Assembly: GCA_963812605.1 (NCBI GenBank)
Contig: CAWEWF010000001.1
Location: 576,001-640,000, forward strand
Direction: 5' to 3'
From: an uncultured Verrucomicrobiae bacterium
GTDB lineage: Bacteria > Verrucomicrobiota > Verrucomicrobiia > Palsa-1439
Length of the DNA stretch: 64,000 bases
Shown: in pieces, positions 233 through 8,108 of the stretch
Numbering within the stretch: position 1 is the stretch's first letter
Layout of the letters: each line of letters opens with the position of its first letter
Translations under genes and position numbers: made by a program
Notes under the pieces: model-generated
What the model saw: only the letters and a program-made list of their open reading frames with translations
The model's database searches: none
What the model was told of the DNA's origin: nothing

Positions 233-587
233 GGGGGCGAAACGGATTCGACTTTGTGGGGTGAGCGTGAGCGGCATGCCGAGGTTGTCAGGAGGCCTCG
301 TTAAAAACCTGGCAAAAACATAACTGCGAATCACGAACTCGCACTCGCGGCTTAATTGTCCGCGACGTTCCGCCTGCGACACCTGCTGGTGGGGTCGGAA
401 CGACGATAGCAGGTTAGTCTATGGATGTCGTCTTCAGGTCCATGGATGAAACACTAACTGGAGGCTGGCGCGGCGGGTGGCCTGTCCATTGGCAGCACGC
501 CGGGCGAGACCCAAAGATGGAATAAGCATGTAGTCACTTGCGTGCGCTTTGCAGAGGACGTGGGTTCAACTCCCACCGCCTCCACCA
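233..587 (+). ncRNA. ssrA: tmRNA (transfer-messenger RNA)
   Basis: 5' GGGGGCGAAACGGATTCGAC; 3' GTGGGTTCAACTCCCACCGCCTCCACCA with T-arm and CCA; acceptor stem GGGGGCG/CGCCTCC with G3.U wobble; tag frame 326-355 encodes ANHELALAA-stop after TAACT. Confidence 0.97.
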
Positions 588-2087
588 CTTTGAACTTGGC
601 GTGAAATCATCGACCGCGCTCGGCGCGGCAACGGTGGTTTCAGCCAAGAAATTCCAGGGTTTTCTGAAGGTAACAGTTAAGGTCTGCTCGCGTAAAAGGC
701 GGTTCGAGCAGACCTTTTTAAGGAACCCTTTCATTTCTAACCAGTTTTGGTCAGTCAGCCATTCTTCGGCCTTGTTTGCCTCAAAAAGCCAGTTTTTGAG
801 GGGTTCGAGCCGATGAGCATGGTTTGACTCCAAAGTGGTGATTTGACCCTCCAATTCGACCTTGCGGGGCAGGAGGGGGTTTTTGAGTTCCTTGAACTCC
901 TCAATATCGAGTGACCCGTCGGCAAAGCCGTTGTTGATGCGGTCGATCTTGGTCTTGATCGCCGCCAACTCGGCTTTGAGTCGGTCGATCTGTATTTGCC
1001 TCCGTACCGTCTCCTCCTCTTCCCACGTTTCAACTTTGGCGAGAAACCGTTCCTTCCATTCGATGGGAAGGGCGACTAGCTGCGTGTTCCGTTTCACTTC
1101 ATCGGCGAACGTGTCTTTGCGAATGTACGAGCGGTCTTCGCAATGCACCTTCTTGTTCTTGTGGGTGCATCGGTAGTAGTCGAAGCGAAGGCCGCTCTTT
1201 TTGATATGCCGTTCGCCGGTGATACAATGGCCACAGGAACCGCAGGTAGCGAAATTCAGGAAGAGAAATCCTTTGTCGTCGCGATGCTTGCGAGGCTTCG
1301 CGACGGCAACAAGCGCTTCTTGAATCTGATCGAAGGTTTTCTTCGAAATCATGGGCTGGTGCACGCCGTGGTGCACTTCGCCCTTGTGCAGAAAAACGCC
1401 ATAGTAGAAGTGGCAGCGGAGCAGGTTGCCGACGGAAGAAAGTGGTAGTGGCTTGCCATTCTGTCGGCCTAGAATACCAAGCTTGGTTGACTCTTTCTGG
1501 ATGGCGGTGAGCGAATATTCGCCTGTGGCGAATAGCTCCAAAAGCCGCTTCACCTTGGGAAAAAGCTCTGGATGGGGTTCGATGGTGCGGAGGCGTGGTT
1601 CATTTACATAGCCAAGTGGTGCTCTGCCGGACCATACGCCGCGTCGAACCTTCTCGCGGATGCCCCTGCGGATATTTACGGAGAGATCGCGGACGTATTG
1701 GTTCGCCATGCCGAGTTCAACTGCTATCATGAGCACGTTGTCGGATGGCAGGTACGTTCTTTCAAAGGCGCGGATTTCCTGAATGACGCCTCGCTGGAGC
1801 AACCCGATGATCTTTCCCCCGTCATCGAAGTTGCGGGCGAGTCTATCGAGCTTCCATGAAAGAATGGCATTCGCCTCGCCGCGTTCGATGCGGGCTAGCA
1901 TGTCGTTGAAGATTGGTCGGCCAGGCTCCTTGGCGCTCCGACTTTCGGTAAATGTTTCGACGATCACCAAGCCGTCTTGCCGCGCGATCGAGTTCAATTC
2001 GGAAAGCTGGGCTTCGATGGAAAGAATTTGTCTGTCTTCATCCTCCGTCGATTTGCGCGCATATACGAAGTATTTCAGCATGGACAT
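534..2087 (-). CDS. large serine recombinase (integrase)
   Basis: YARKS catalytic motif, WKLDRLAR, recombinase domain (APLGY), Zn ribbon (CGSC...C...C), coiled coil; the last 54 nt overlap tmRNA antisense. Confidence 0.95.
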   Translation of the reverse strand: MSMLKYFVYARKSTEDEDRQILSIEAQLSELNSIARQDGLVIVETFTESRSAKEPGRPIFNDMLARIERGEANAILSWKLDRLARNFDDGGKIIGLLQRGVIQEIRAFERTYLPSDNVLMIAVELGMANQYVRDLSVNIRRGIREKVRRGVWSGRAPLGYVNEPRLRTIEPHPELFPKVKRLLELFATGEYSLTAIQKESTKLGILGRQNGKPLPLSSVGNLLRCHFYYGVFLHKGEVHHGVHQPMISKKTFDQIQEALVAVAKPRKHRDDKGFLFLNFATCGSCGHCITGERHIKKSGLRFDYYRCTHKNKKVHCEDRSYIRKDTFADEVKRNTQLVALPIEWKERFLAKVETWEEEETVRRQIQIDRLKAELAAIKTKIDRINNGFADGSLDIEEFKELKNPLLPRKVELEGQITTLESNHAHRLEPLKNWLFEANKAEEWLTDQNWLEMKGFLKKVCSNRLLREQTLTVTFRKPWNFLAETTVAAPSAVDDFTPSSKWWRRWELNPRPLQSARK

Positions 2088-2123
2088 AGTCTAGCAGATT
2101 TCATAAATGATTGCGATATAAAA

Positions 2124-2531
2124 ATGAAGCGTCAGAAACATTTTACAATACCGAAAGCACTGCTCAAGAAACTGCGGGGTAATTCCTCGTCGGAGCGCCT
2201 GCTGCATCGCCTGCATGCCGTCGCGCTCGTTGCTGGCGGGCTTTCGGCTAGTGAAGTCGGGCAAATCTACGGTGATTCCCCCCGTGCTGTGGCCTATTGG
2301 GTGACTCAATACAGGAAGAGCGGCTTTGAAGGACTACAGGAGGAGGATCGCCCTGGTCGTCCGGCGCAATTAAGCCCAACGCAGATGAAGAAGCTGCAAA
2401 CTTTTGTGGAACAATCTCGTGCGAGATCACGAACGGTGAATGCGAACATCCTCTCCAAGTATATCAAAGAAGAGTTCGGCATTTCTCTTAGCACCCCTCA
2501 GTGTTGGCGGATTCTTAATCGATTGAAATGA
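2124..2531 (+). CDS. HTH DNA-binding protein resembling the N-terminal region of IS630 transposases, with no DDE domain
   Basis: RLHAVAL...SASEVGQIYG...YWVTQYRKSGFEGL...RPGRPAQLS...IKEEFGISLS...WRILNRL; 135 aa; divergent from the integrase across 36 bp. Confidence 0.8.
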   Translation: MKRQKHFTIPKALLKKLRGNSSSERLLHRLHAVALVAGGLSASEVGQIYGDSPRAVAYWVTQYRKSGFEGLQEEDRPGRPAQLSPTQMKKLQTFVEQSRARSRTVNANILSKYIKEEFGISLSTPQCWRILNRLK

Positions 2532-2603
2532 GTGAGTGTTGTGGTTGTCGGGTGTTTCTTTAGGCTCGATGGTGCGTATGCGGCGCCAGCAGTGAAGCTG
2601 GTC

Positions 2604-2780
2604 CCGCCTTTTACGCGAGCAGACCTTAACTGTTACCTTCAGAAAACCCTGGAATTTCTTGGCTGAAACCACCGTTGCCGCGCCGAGCGCGGTCGATGAT
2701 TTCACGCCAAGTTCAAAGTGGTGGTGCCTTCTGGAGAAAGTTCGTACCTTTTTTAATGAAAATCCAGTCTGATTTGGGTA
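2604..2780. repeat. internal inverted copy of reconstituted attP (177 bp)
   Basis: 2604-2724 is the exact reverse complement of 582-702 (121 bp); 2719-2780 is the exact reverse complement of 3386-3447 (62 bp); the two overlap at TGGTGG. Confidence 0.95.
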
Positions 2781-3447
2781 AGGGAGCAATGGCTCCGTGA
2801 AGAGATCCGCGCGAACCGAATCATGATTCTTGAACTGATGAAATGGGGGGTAGTAGTTCTGTCCGGCGTTACGTCATCGCTATATTTTGTTCGGCGTAAC
2901 GTGGCGAAGCACTTGGCGGCACTCGGTGCACACCTTCGCCGTCGATGGGGTAAGAGGGGTATCGACGTAGCACAAGGGGGGTGTAGCCGAAGCGTATGTA
3001 ACCCGAGCCGATCCATCTGCGTAGCTGCGAAACGGGAGGGGAAAAGGTGTCGAGAGGAAACCTGGGGAGGCTTCCTCCCTGTTTTCCTGCGAACCCGTTT
3101 CCGGGTTCTTGTCTCCCGCGTAAGCGGGCTGTCCCACCCGTGTTCGACCCGTTAAAGGACATTGTCCTTTAACACGTTCCCGTGCGTGGGTGAACCCGTT
3201 GTGTCGCCTCTGCGACGAGCGCGAGCACGGCCTGCCCTGAGGCCGCGCGCAGCCCGATTCCGCGTGAGCGGAAAACCTATGGAAGTAGGGGATGTCAAAC
3301 GAGGGGTGAACCACGACAAAACCGTTGTAAACATTGACTCATCTGGGATCAGCACCCCTCCCCACAGTGGGGAAGGGTGTGGGGATACCCAAATCAGACT
3401 GGATTTTCATTAAAAAAGGTACGAACTTTCTCCAGAAGGCACCACCA

Positions 3448-3493
3448 TTCGACGCGCCCTTCGCTCAAGCGAAGGGCTTGCTCATGGCAGGCC
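3448..3493 (+). repeat. REP-like palindrome / hairpin downstream of the right junction
   Basis: TTCGAC...GCCCTTCGC-TCAA-GCGAAGGGC...GCTCATGGC; 9-bp perfect stem at 3456-3477. Confidence 0.6.
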
Positions 3494-3545
3494 ATTCCAC
3501 TAAATTCGACACAGACTCTTTGCACGCCAGCGCGGCGAATGGGCG

Positions 3546-3833
3546 ATGAACTCCTACACCTATATTCTTCTCTGTGCCGATGATTCTCTGTATGTTGGGC
3601 ACACGCACGATTTGAGTTTGCGGGTCGATGCACACGACACAGGTCGCGGCGCTCTTCACACCGCCAAACATGGAGTTGCTCGACTGGTCTACTCAGAAGA
3701 ACATGCCACCGAAGCGCTAGCCGTGGCACGCGAACTTCAGATCAAGAAATGGAGTCGTGCGAAGAAGATGGCGCTCATCAATGGGGATTTTGAGCGACTA
3801 CGCGAACTCAGCCGGAGCCGAGACAAATTCTAA
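3546..3833 (+). CDS. GIY-YIG nuclease family protein (UPF0213-like)
   Basis: YTYILLCADDSLYVGHT...R...H...ARELQIKKWSRAKKMALI. Confidence 0.9.
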   Translation: MNSYTYILLCADDSLYVGHTHDLSLRVDAHDTGRGALHTAKHGVARLVYSEEHATEALAVARELQIKKWSRAKKMALINGDFERLRELSRSRDKF

Positions 3834-4983: not shown

Positions 4984-5188
4984 GATCCTCCGGGACTGGT
5001 TATTGCTCACATGACAATTTCACTCACGCGAATAGTGTAACAACATCGTAGCGTTAGTTCAACTGTTTCGTGTGACGATCGGTCCTAAGGATCCATGAGG
5101 CGATGTTGTTTGATTTCAACCCCAATGGGTTTATAATGCCGGGAAAGAAATTGGCAAGTGTTGGCGGTCAGCAAAGGAATACCATTCG

Positions 5189-5611: not shown

Positions 5612-6967
5612 ATGCTGAAACACCGTTTCACGTTGGTTTACCGCTGGGTGAGAAATCTGCTTTCGGTGGCGGTCGCCGTGGTCTTTTTGCTGCTGCCGGG
5701 TCTGACGACCATCCGGGACCTTGCGGATCCAGGCCTGAGGCGACCGGGTATCCCGGAGAAAGCCTGGCGGATGCATCGTTATCTGACGCCGCTTATCCAG
5801 CGGTGGGCGCGGGAGCGCATCGCGTCCAAGCGCGCGGCGCACTTGAATCTCTACGATGTTCCCAGCACCGAGTGGCCGATGTTCACCTGCGTGTTTTATT
5901 TGCGGGCGACCGAAGCCTTGCAGGCGGCGTGGGAAAAGGACCATCAACTGTCCCGCGAGGCCCCGTTAACCTACTCACGGGACACGGTGGAAGCCGCGAA
6001 GGACCTGCTGCTCGATCCCAACCATCACACGTGGGTGCGCCAGCATTGGGGGGACGACTACTGGCACACCCAGAATGTGTTTTTTCGCTCGTTGGTTATT
6101 TCAGGAATCACCAGCTACGAGCAACTCGACGGGCGGGGTCAGTACCGACCGTTCTTACGGGACCAGGTGGACACGTTATCGGCGTCGCTGGATCAGTCGA
6201 AACTGGGTTTGTTGGAAGATTACCCGAATGAATGTTATCCGATTGATGTCGTCGCGGCGATTGCGTGGATCAAACGCGCGGATGAGTTGCTCGGCATCGA
6301 TCGCTCGGAATTCTATGCGCGGTCGTTGCGGGCTTTTGTGGGGGCGCAGTCGGATGGACGGGGATTGGTTCCCTACACGGTTGACTATTTGAAGGGAAGG
6401 GTGGATGAACCGTCGCGCGGGATTGGCAATTCGCACGTCCTGATGTCCGCTCCCGATCTGTGGCCCGCACAAGCGGAAACCTGGTATGATCTTTATGAAA
6501 AACATTTCTGGCAGGAACGCTGGTGGGCGGCCGGCTTTCGCGAGTATCCAAAGGATGTCACGGACTACAGTTGGTACGATGTGGATTCGGGGCCGATTGT
6601 CGATGGCTTCAGCATTTCCGGCAACGCATTCGCGGTCGCGGCATCGCGGATCAACGGACGCTTCGATCATGCCTTCACGATCAGCGCCCAGGTGCTGACC
6701 GCGTGCTGGCCTTTGCCCAACGGCCTGCAACTTGGCCCGCGCCTCATTTGTCTGTCCGCCGGCGATCACGCACCCTATCTCGGCGAATCCGCGATCATGT
6801 TCTTCCTTACGCAAAACCCAAAAGAAGGCATCCCGGTGAGGACCGGCGGACATCTGGTTGGTTCCGTGTACCTTGGTCTGTTATTCTACCTCGGATTTGG
6901 CGGACTCATGCTGTGGTTGTCCATCCGCGATATGCAAAAGTTGTGGCGAGAAAAGCATCCCCATTAG
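5612..6967 (+). CDS. membrane-anchored protein, possibly linalool dehydratase/isomerase-like
   Basis: N- and C-terminal TM segments; LLEDYPNECYPIDV, GFREYP and DVDSGP motifs; function uncertain. Confidence 0.55.
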   Translation: MLKHRFTLVYRWVRNLLSVAVAVVFLLLPGLTTIRDLADPGLRRPGIPEKAWRMHRYLTPLIQRWARERIASKRAAHLNLYDVPSTEWPMFTCVFYLRATEALQAAWEKDHQLSREAPLTYSRDTVEAAKDLLLDPNHHTWVRQHWGDDYWHTQNVFFRSLVISGITSYEQLDGRGQYRPFLRDQVDTLSASLDQSKLGLLEDYPNECYPIDVVAAIAWIKRADELLGIDRSEFYARSLRAFVGAQSDGRGLVPYTVDYLKGRVDEPSRGIGNSHVLMSAPDLWPAQAETWYDLYEKHFWQERWWAAGFREYPKDVTDYSWYDVDSGPIVDGFSISGNAFAVAASRINGRFDHAFTISAQVLTACWPLPNGLQLGPRLICLSAGDHAPYLGESAIMFFLTQNPKEGIPVRTGGHLVGSVYLGLLFYLGFGGLMLWLSIRDMQKLWREKHPH

Positions 6968-7070
6968 CGTCGCTGAAAATCTTCCGACCCATTTTCGCCC
7001 TTTCGGTATTGCGCCCATCGACAAGATTTGCATTGATTTTATGGTCGGTTTGCACGAGACGTTAGGGACA

Positions 7071-8108
7071 ATGAGGTGGTTGGTGGCTTTCTTCACGGTC
7101 GGATTTTGCTGTGCCCTGTCGCTGGTCGCATTGGCAGCGGACCCCGGGCCGGTCGAGTCCCTGAAGAGCTTCAGTGACTTCACGGAGGTCGATTTCAACC
7201 GTCTGCTGAACGGGGATGTGCTCTCGGAACGCGGTTCGTTGATGGATTTTCCCAACGGGATTTCGGCGCAAACCTGTTTCGTGGTGCCGCTATCGGCGGA
7301 AGAAACCGCGAGGCGACTGCAATTGTGGGACCCATCACCGCATCCCGAGTTGAAAGTTTTCGCCTTCCACTCGCTCCATACGCCCTGTGAATTGGCGGAC
7401 TTTCAGCCATTGGATTTCAAGACCAGCCAGCACCCGGTGCGCTGGTTGTTCGACAAAATCGTCGCTTCAACCCCGGCCAAGTCCGATCTGAATCTGACGC
7501 ATACCGAAGCCCAGCAACTGTCTGGTTGCATCGCGAAGCACGCTGATCCGCAGAAAGTGTCCGAGTGCATGGCAGCGTTCCTGCTGGGCCGCGCGTCGGC
7601 ATTTCAGCAAAAAGGGCTCGACGGGGTCCAACCTTACGAGACAGAGGGAGCGTCGATCTCGCCGGTCGTCCAGTTGCGCGCCATGCTGCGCGAACAACTC
7701 GCCATCGCCCACGAATTCTCGCCCATTCTGAAGAAGATCGGGCTGCTGGGGAATGAGACCGTCCCCTCGCTGACGCCGTTCTACTACTGGACTCTCTTCG
7801 ACGCCGACTATCACGGGACGATCAGTTTGGGGGCGGTGTATCAGTTGGCGGTGGGCGATCATTTCCAACTCGTGGATATGGAGTATTACGTCAGCGGCAA
7901 CTACTACACCTCGGCTACGGTTTTTGAAGTTTGGCCGATACGTGTCGGCGGGAAGCCCGGGGCGTTGGTGTGGCGCGGTGATTTCTTTGCGGCGCCGATG
8001 CTGGCCTTCACCAAGGGGACCGAGCGTATCGCCTACGGCGCGCTCATGCTGCAAGACATCAAAAAAGAGATTCACTGTTTTCAGGATGAGGCAAAGACGA
8101 GGAAATGA
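7071..8108 (+). CDS. hypothetical exported protein
   Basis: signal peptide; long ORF overlapping the next gene (ATGA). Confidence 0.7.
   Translation: MRWLVAFFTVGFCCALSLVALAADPGPVESLKSFSDFTEVDFNRLLNGDVLSERGSLMDFPNGISAQTCFVVPLSAEETARRLQLWDPSPHPELKVFAFHSLHTPCELADFQPLDFKTSQHPVRWLFDKIVASTPAKSDLNLTHTEAQQLSGCIAKHADPQKVSECMAAFLLGRASAFQQKGLDGVQPYETEGASISPVVQLRAMLREQLAIAHEFSPILKKIGLLGNETVPSLTPFYYWTLFDADYHGTISLGAVYQLAVGDHFQLVDMEYYVSGNYYTSATVFEVWPIRVGGKPGALVWRGDFFAAPMLAFTKGTERIAYGALMLQDIKKEIHCFQDEAKTRK

Follow-up and report, generated by a model that had tools for sequence, protein, structure and literature searches.

A large serine integrase element at the tmRNA gene of a Verrucomicrobiae bacterium carries a second, inverted attP

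In an uncultured Verrucomicrobiae bacterium (GTDB lineage Bacteria; Verrucomicrobiota; Verrucomicrobiia; Palsa-1439), the 3′ end of the transfer-messenger RNA (tmRNA) gene, ssrA, is occupied by a small integrated element that carries, besides its two junctions with the host, a complete and inverted copy of its own attachment site, attP. The element covers positions 582-3447 of the window, i.e. the whole stretch of 64,000 nucleotides (nt) analysed here (assembly GCA_963812605.1, contig CAWEWF010000001.1, positions 576,001 to 640,000, forward strand). It spans 2.87 kb and is a cargo-less member of a Verrucomicrobiota island family driven by a large serine integrase. That the structure with its inverted spare attP is real and conserved can be held with high confidence. 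Its role is proposed at slightly less than even confidence: a rare and probably homologous flip would restore the full integrase, the clipped form of the enzyme corresponding to a quiescent element and the flipped form to a mobility-competent one.

The tmRNA gene (233-587, plus strand; ARAGORN; Rfam RF00023, 195.3 bits) ends in CCACCA, and these six nucleotides are the crossover core at the left junction, attL. Two exact inverted repeats, both recovered by repeat search and self-BLAST, define the architecture. Repeat 1 pairs 582-702 with 2604-2724 (121 nt, 100% identity, stretchable to 128 nt at 98%); its left arm consists of the core (582-587) and the P′ arm of attP, and encodes integrase residues ~463-504 on the minus strand. 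Repeat 2 pairs 2719-2780 with 3386-3447 (62 nt, 100%); its right arm is the right junction, attR, formed by the P arm and the core (3442-3447), the minus strand of which encodes the integrase tail. The two repeats overlap in TGGTGG (2719-2724), the complement of the terminal CCACCA of the tmRNA, and the reverse complement of 2597-2780 reads right-end P arm, CCACCA and left-end P′ arm, i.e. a whole attP junction. The spare inverted attP thus occupies 2604-2780. Both repeats are far beyond chance expectation, since the sole other inverted repeat of at least 20 nt in the first 6 kb has 23 nt at 74% identity, and they are confined to this one locus in the 15-contig, 4.17-Mb assembly. According to Rfam, the tmRNA is intact through its CCA in the occupied site, and tmRNA or true tRNA-Ala and tRNA-Val genes serve as targets in relatives. 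Empty sites, as expected of an integrative element, are found in two related genomes (G004 and G006) and in a contig of public run X3, in which the tmRNA is followed by 110 nt and then by an M90 peptidase gene. A first-pass annotation made from the sequence had placed a serine-recombinase element at the tmRNA end and had read 2604-2780 as an exact inverted excision junction (121 bp plus 62 bp, overlapping at CCACCA), hence as a full internal attP; its coordinates and description are correct, and a side-by-side sequence comparison identifies the internal site as a full inverted attP.

The same layout recurs across relatives. Of 40 related genomes, G012, G016, G003 and G005 carry a close homologue of the integrase, and four of the five related elements of the genus share one order of parts. 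In G012, G016 and G003 this order is tmRNA or tRNA, P′ arm, integrase gene, helix-turn-helix (HTH) gene and inverted attP, as in the window; in G005 the integrase gene has four stop codons and the spare site is lost. The 121-nt repeat is 100% identical within each of the four elements that share the order, while arms of different elements are 76-98% identical. In G012 and G003 the second repeat reaches 276-280 nt (99.3% identity); the cargo between its arms measures 21 kb in G012 and 3.8 kb in G003. The cargo of G012, a 24-kb relative, includes two coupling-protein-like ATPases, a DnaG-type primase, a Replic_Relax protein, a methylase with a PD-(D/E)XK protein and a SRAP peptidase; therefore, the full-size element is an integrative island and probably mobilizable. 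Two other loci, L157 and L177, are cargo-less miniatures similar to that of the window.

Wider surveys extend this picture, and the search of integrase homologues for a conserved internal inverted attP, suggested in the first-pass annotation, was positive. The repeat is present in 18 of 21 close loci on genome contigs (59-96% integrase identity; all labelled Verrucomicrobiota save one labelled otherwise), 14 times at 100% identity and six times at exactly 121 nt, and in 58 of 80 metagenome loci, a count that includes two loci added by hand; nine of the 80 have no repeat despite enough sequence, and 13 are uninformative. Among more distant loci (31-48% identity) it occurs in four of 59, namely three from Patescibacteria and one from Omnitrophota. 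When viral contigs were scanned with the integrase alignment, none of the 36 pattern matches proved to be a relative. The inner boundary of the repeat is near constant, most arms measuring 111-126 nt; arms erode from the inner end and the core-proximal part remains identical. Many contigs end 100-136 nt past the spare site, which is where they would stop if a second repeat were there and the assembler had left it unresolved. Matches in independent DNA were obtained from Logan contigs: one run holds a unitig that is exactly 582-702, run X1, possibly the source sample, has a 170-nt unitig covering 2607-2776 with no differences, and a contig of run X4 fuses 2951-3441 directly to 582-702.

The integrase gene (534-2087, minus strand) encodes a canonical large serine integrase of 517 residues, with matches to phrog_95 and to the SPbeta and A118 integrases in the PDB. 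Its catalytic domain (Pfam Resolvase, PF00239, residues 7-152, E 2.5e-18) is followed by Recombinase (PF07508, 177-259) and Zn_ribbon_recom (PF13408, 276-332), and the zinc-ribbon cysteines C282, C285 and C307 are invariant across 13 sequences. The predicted structure of a natural relative, L187 (mean predicted local distance difference test score, pLDDT, 87), aligns over its full length with the SPbeta, Bxb1 and PhiC31 integrase structures (probability 1.0), and long paired helices (340-387 and 393-419) between zinc-ribbon strands form the coiled-coil insertion typical of such enzymes.

What sets this gene apart is its 3′ end. The integrase frame passes through the P′ arm and the core and ends inside the tmRNA gene, so that the last 13 residues are tmRNA-encoded. 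Since attP lies within the integrase gene and the crossover falls in its own last codons, insertion clips a conserved C-terminal tail of 14-16 residues, WW-[CS]-[LF]-L-x3-R-T-x-[FL]-[DE]-E-N-P, the WW codons of which come from the core. In the usual integrated state this tail is swapped for 1 to ~24 residues set by the host RNA gene. An open frame that crosses the core, a conserved attP-form tail and variable host-encoded ends are the marks of an attP situated inside int. The spare site keeps a copy of what is lost: on the plus strand, 2596-2772 is an open frame that repeats the last 55 integrase codons and ends in the attP-type tail WW-CLLEKVRTFFNENPV and a stop codon, and the attP copy itself holds the last 38 integrase codons plus the tail, beyond the module made of the integrase gene and, where present, the HTH gene. 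Over tail codons 3-16, column entropy is 0.96, 0.63 and 1.28 at codon positions 1, 2 and 3, and conservation ends after codon 16, a pattern that, at the level of sequence, is a coding signature. These values come from 41 attP-type flanks (57 found, 51 of them distinct and 48 long enough to print, seven of which were dropped by a motif filter), and the filter fixes the arginine by construction. Read by hand, the three Patescibacteria loci likewise have R/Q-T-x-F at the tail position. In the L187 model the tail forms a helix (495-511, with pLDDT ~90 over 501-510), and a conserved hairpin follows the stop codon of the native integrase tail.

The attachment sites themselves fit the known rules. 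The core CCACCA is all that attP and attB share. Counted from the core, a T-loop-like motif lies at +13 in 45 of 46 host-side sites and at +18 in 21 of 31 P-side sites (first match taken), and the offset between the P and B motifs is 5 in 17 of 23 pairs. In large serine integrases, according to the published account, the outer motif lies 5 bp closer to the centre in attB than in attP (PMC11722253). The sites of the element thus behave as serine-integrase sites, the motif shift being equal to this 5-bp rule. The asymmetry of the core means that recombination of neighbouring sites always inverts the DNA between them and never excises it.

Orientation in the relatives was read from the integrase-side flank in 101 close loci: 74 are host-type, two attP-type (L159 and L187), two odd (L052 and L195) and 23 unreadable. 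In L159, L187 and protein P0002, the integrase body is joined to an attP-type tail, and in L187 the tail side continues into genes homologous to the cargo of G012. Two strain-matched pairs document the opposite arrangement. In L141 a complete tmRNA (Rfam) abuts the arm beside the HTH gene; over 2106 nt the module of L141 matches that of L040, where the orientation is usual, at 100% identity, and the two host flanks are identical save for 23 differences, all in 150 nt of the tmRNA gene (L141, 1077-1227), a clustering that suggests strain mixing or recombination in ssrA. L139 and L128 form the same kind of opposite-orientation pair at 99.95% identity. Cargo beside the spare site is syntenic and in the same orientation in most pairs; L118 carries beside the spare site what adjoins attR in L055 and in the window, the same junction as in the run X4 contig. 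Collectively, both isomers of both segments exist in relatives, and one form dominates. The double invertible switch that the first-pass annotation had put forward therefore stands in part: the geometry allows four isomers, two of which join the integrase to the attP-type tail, here recognized as the conserved native one, and both orientations of both segments are found in relatives (L141/L040, L139/L128, L118 and the X4 contig), but the 74 host-type flanks against two attP-type and two odd ones, and the mostly constant orientation of the cargo, do not agree with a freely toggling device.

These observations can be assembled into a mechanism. Insertion cuts off the native tail, the tmRNA-encoded end taking its place, and the spare inverted attP stores the lost tail beyond the integrase module. 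Owing to this spare site, the integrase module is bracketed by the 121-nt repeat and the cargo by the 62-nt repeat (~275 nt in relatives). Recombination between the 121-nt arms would invert the integrase module, restoring the native tail as well as the terminator or hairpin after the stop codon, and would turn the integrase gene from convergent to co-directional with ssrA; the promoter-like site at 2140-2167 (minus strand, facing the integrase gene; consensus match only), which lies within the invertible module, would move with it. A core crossover would need only ~25-nt half-sites, and the arms measure ~115 nt and are identical; homologous recombination is favoured over integrase-catalysed inversion because the arms exceed the half-sites and evolve in concert. 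The most likely route would then be RecA-type homologous recombination, and an insertion via the second attP would yield the same isomer. The bias towards the clipped form would fit a stable clipped state and a flipped state that goes on to excision. It is tempting to propose, more speculatively still, a self-clipping integrase with a built-in reset: the crossover would drop a tail that sets activity or direction, thereby locking the element in, and a flip at the spare attP, perhaps raised by RecA after DNA damage, would re-arm excision without a dedicated excision factor, in a very large family of islands with serine integrases across Verrucomicrobiota and Patescibacteria. This extended version is tentative and less likely than not, and the reset-switch function as such is plausible but unproven.

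Several points weigh against a restoring flip. The imbalance of 74 to two plus two means that flipping is rare or that the flipped state is short-lived. The flipped contigs stem from short-read assemblies in which the path had to be threaded through a repeat roughly as long as a k-mer, so that mis-threading is possible, and both of them stop within the second arm. The repeat is absent from nine relatives whose integrase is intact, and in L041, L045 and L048 the spare copy is short of the core-proximal 14-52 nt. The tail may be dispensable for integrase activity, and its conservation in the spare copy could be passive, since attR keeps the same tail-coding P arm. Finally, no public run exceeded 0.24 of the sampled words, and the evidence on the window consists of contigs from four runs and not of raw reads.

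Another reading places the function of the two inverted attP sites in the excised circle, where, as in the yeast 2-micron plasmid, identical inverted repeats would part a small integrase segment from the cargo, isomerization or orientation-free insertion being selected and flipped isomers arising by insertion through the other attP. The geometry follows directly from the sequence, and the sites, identical over -62 to +121, would be indistinguishable to the integrase. The primase, the Replic_Relax protein and the two coupling-protein-like ATPases of the G012 cargo suggest that a circle may replicate or be transferred, and in the X4 contig no fewer than 491 nt of the right end run straight on into the P′ arm, unbranched at the core, like an excised form. 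However, free use of either attP predicts about half of the insertions to be flipped, as opposed to the 74 against two to four observed; recombination of attP with attP is considered blocked for the SPbeta integrase in the published work; and the cargo-less members (the window, L157 and L177) hold nothing to replicate. A circle-borne function is therefore unlikely, although it is the best placed of the alternatives to a restoring flip.

The architecture might also be a relic: attP would have been duplicated in inverted form in an ancestor, and gene conversion would since have kept the copies identical without the duplication serving any function. Gene conversion alone would suffice for the concerted evolution of the arms, the truncated spare copies of L041, L045 and L048 keep 100% identical remnants of 65-94 nt, and the nine relatives mentioned above manage without the repeat. 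Against such passive persistence, the layout is kept down to 59% integrase identity in Verrucomicrobiota and reappears in Patescibacteria and Omnitrophota loci at 38-44%, the inner boundary hardly varies, and the sole degenerate integrase examined, that of G005, is accompanied by loss of the spare site. A functionless duplication is rather improbable.

Recombination of attL or attR with the spare attP by the integrase itself would produce a site-specific double invertible switch, the route for which the first-pass annotation had allowed. The three sites have the core in common, none is without a P-type half-site, their polarity permits only inversion, and both orientations of both segments occur in relatives. 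Such a crossover would, nevertheless, leave the length and identity of the arms without purpose and sits poorly with the strong orientation bias. Moreover, in the published model a coiled-coil contact within attL keeps that site locked, and SPbeta integrase forms attP × attP synapses with stable tetramers in which recombination is thought to be blocked. Arm length, arm identity and synapsis thus all speak against the integrase-mediated crossover, which is doubtful for either junction.

It is quite improbable that the spare attP acts as a mere binding site (operator, decoy or looping site) controlling read-through between the integrase/HTH module and the cargo. The site lies exactly between the HTH gene and the cargo, and the stable SPbeta tetramers reported on two attP sites would be compatible with looping; yet the 38 integrase codons and the coding tail within the copy would be left unexplained. 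Misassembly, or a chimera of integrated and excised forms, named in the first-pass annotation as what would undo its claim, can be virtually dismissed as far as contigs can show, because the same junctions recur in >70 assemblies of independent origin and, for other runs, in Logan unitigs, even though repeats of about k-mer length mislead assemblers and many contigs do break at repeats.

Two further schemes were considered and rejected. Resolution into separate palindromic circles, one bearing the integrase cassette and one the cargo, conflicts with the polarity of the core, which permits inversion only between neighbouring sites. Single-strand fold-back integration, as in CTX phage, was discarded by reasoning: a serine recombinase, which cuts both strands, would give hairpin-capped chromosome ends and not the order of parts seen here.

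Next to the integrase gene and divergent from it, a gene on the plus strand (2124-2531) encodes a 135-residue HTH protein (Pfam HTH_32, HTH_28 and HTH_23). It matches positions 2-108 of the 299 of NCBIfam transpos_IS630, i.e. the DNA-binding N-terminus without the catalytic domain. The gene adjoins int in 43 distinct sequences and is missing in several relatives that bear the repeat, so that the protein is not required for the spare-attP layout. It is a candidate regulator or directionality factor, and the sole candidate for an excision factor here. An IS630-type transposon with terminal repeats was rejected on the same two grounds, the missing catalytic domain and the repeat-bearing relatives without the HTH gene.

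The insertion also affects the RNA flank of ssrA. The host side of attR (B′, 3448-3500, plus strand) contains a hairpin (3457-3496) that is probably the original downstream hairpin of ssrA, as judged from the sequence, a weak sub-threshold Rfam match and the empty sites of relatives. It is probably replaced by a hairpin within the P′ arm (614-628, plus strand), ~27 nt past the tmRNA end, which may act as a substitute 3′ flank or terminator. In an alignment of 24 elements, 87.5% of the cells of this hairpin are paired as against 22-58% in slid controls, 19 cells have changed on both sides, and none of 500 shuffles matched the observed covariation. A perfect 12-bp hairpin followed by TTTTT (679-721) lies across the inner boundary of the 121-nt repeat and would be broken by a flip; it could serve as the ssrA terminator in the clipped state. 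As evidence, this boundary terminator (679-716 plus the T run) was set aside, being clear in the window but retaining only three pairs in the consensus fold of 24 relatives. Beyond B′, a 95-residue GIY-YIG open reading frame (3546-3833) stands between attR and the M90 peptidase gene; this gene follows the tmRNA (or attR) after only ~35 nt in G004, G006 and G012, and the frame is therefore a separate small insertion or a lineage-specific gene.

In place of cargo, the window has a non-coding spacer of 605 nt (2781-3385); its alignment with relatives contains indels of 1, 2 and 4 nt, which speak against a coding function. Its part 2931-3385 is conserved next to the right end in relatives and rich in hairpins. 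Folding gives z -3.8 for the minus strand and z -1.7 for the plus strand, and compensatory change affects just six of the 34 pairs of the consensus fold. The spacer matches no Rfam family, the tmRNA alone reaching the gathering score across the whole window. An 80-nt motif within it (~3009-3091), …CGATCCATCTGCG.AGC.GCG…GTCGAGAGG.AA.CTGGGG…, repeats at ~80% identity elsewhere in this genome, at G000:C3:73651-73729 (L006, ~1500-1580), and on many contigs of the genus; neither this motif nor its second copy matches an Rfam family.

Some relatives show peculiarities of their own. L054 (labelled Chthoniobacterales) has, beside the usual repeat, a 150-nt inverted copy (98.7%) of an internal part of the tmRNA upstream of the integrase (358-507 and 2182-2331). 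In L052 (integrase at 6001-7548) and L195 (5001-6548), a 120-nt exact repeat brackets the integrase; the 3′ flank is no tRNA but resembles an attP arm, in which the motif keeps the P-type distance and the tail is short and of another sequence (WWTHTEIHRTV), and the neighbours include RHS and Ntox44 fragments and DUF3800. L172 has an extra exact inverted repeat of 111 nt between the contig start (1-111) and the integrase interior (4990-5100), which may be an assembly fold-back. The integrase-side flanks of L156, L147, L178 and L119 show the last 17-20 nt of the tmRNA after the core and then unrelated DNA, as expected of tandem islands, with another island between the tmRNA gene and the element.

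In synthetic biology and genome engineering, one-way insertion of DNA relies mainly on large serine integrases, and the control of their direction is an active question. A natural family whose integrase exchanges its tail by its own crossover, and which keeps that tail next to a spare inverted attP, would offer a new control logic open to direct test, with the tail present or absent and the module flipped or not, and possibly compact self-limiting integration cassettes. In addition, the layout explains why contigs repeatedly break beside tRNA and tmRNA genes in genomes assembled from metagenomes, and the islands that share it make up a widespread family in the Verrucomicrobiota of soil and peat.

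Compared with the large serine integrases of SPbeta (SprA), A118 (LI), Bxb1 and PhiC31, the element has the same domain order, fold, short core, unrelated arms and 5-bp motif shift. It differs in keeping a complete second inverted attP when integrated, in a crossover located in the last codons of the integrase and in a target that is the CCA end of a tmRNA or tRNA. In the full-text literature searched, which excluded the tables of the tycheposon preprint (10.1101/2020.12.28.424599), an internal inverted attP was found in engineered cassettes only and in no natural element; that preprint lists a minority of elements with large serine recombinases. The engineered cassettes are landing pads for cassette exchange (MiMIC, RMCE), where two inverted attP sites flank a cassette; they are artificial and depend on a donor that carries two attB sites. 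The Int protein of myxophage Mx8 is a tyrosine recombinase. Its attP lies in the int gene, and insertion gives the integrase (IntP/IntX) a new 3′ end that is presented as a molecular switch for prophage excision (PMC6070905). The clipping by insertion is thus the same, and a spare inverted attP is not described there. In SPbeta SprA, F532 near the C-terminus is reported to matter for directionality (PMC11722253). This C-terminal element of SprA is not exchanged by recombination, and the tail considered here may have the same role.

Two classical systems come close in geometry. The yeast 2-micron circle is divided into two invertible segments by two inverted repeats with the FLP site (FRT). The circle of the element would have a like geometry, but the two sites recombined by FLP are identical, a pairing that large serine integrases do not normally resolve, and the element gives no sign of amplification of the 2-micron type, so that the fit is geometric. 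Hin, Gin and Cin are small serine recombinases that work with an enhancer and Fis. They are alike in having inverted sites around a segment and an adjacent serine recombinase; here, in contrast, the recombinase is a large integrase of 517 residues situated inside the invertible segment, and orientations are distributed 74 against two to four. The element belongs to a known kind, that of the large serine integrases, with a site architecture that is apparently undescribed; new here are the tmRNA target, the 24-kb mobilizable relative, the codon-level evidence for the tail and the two strain-matched pairs of opposite orientation.

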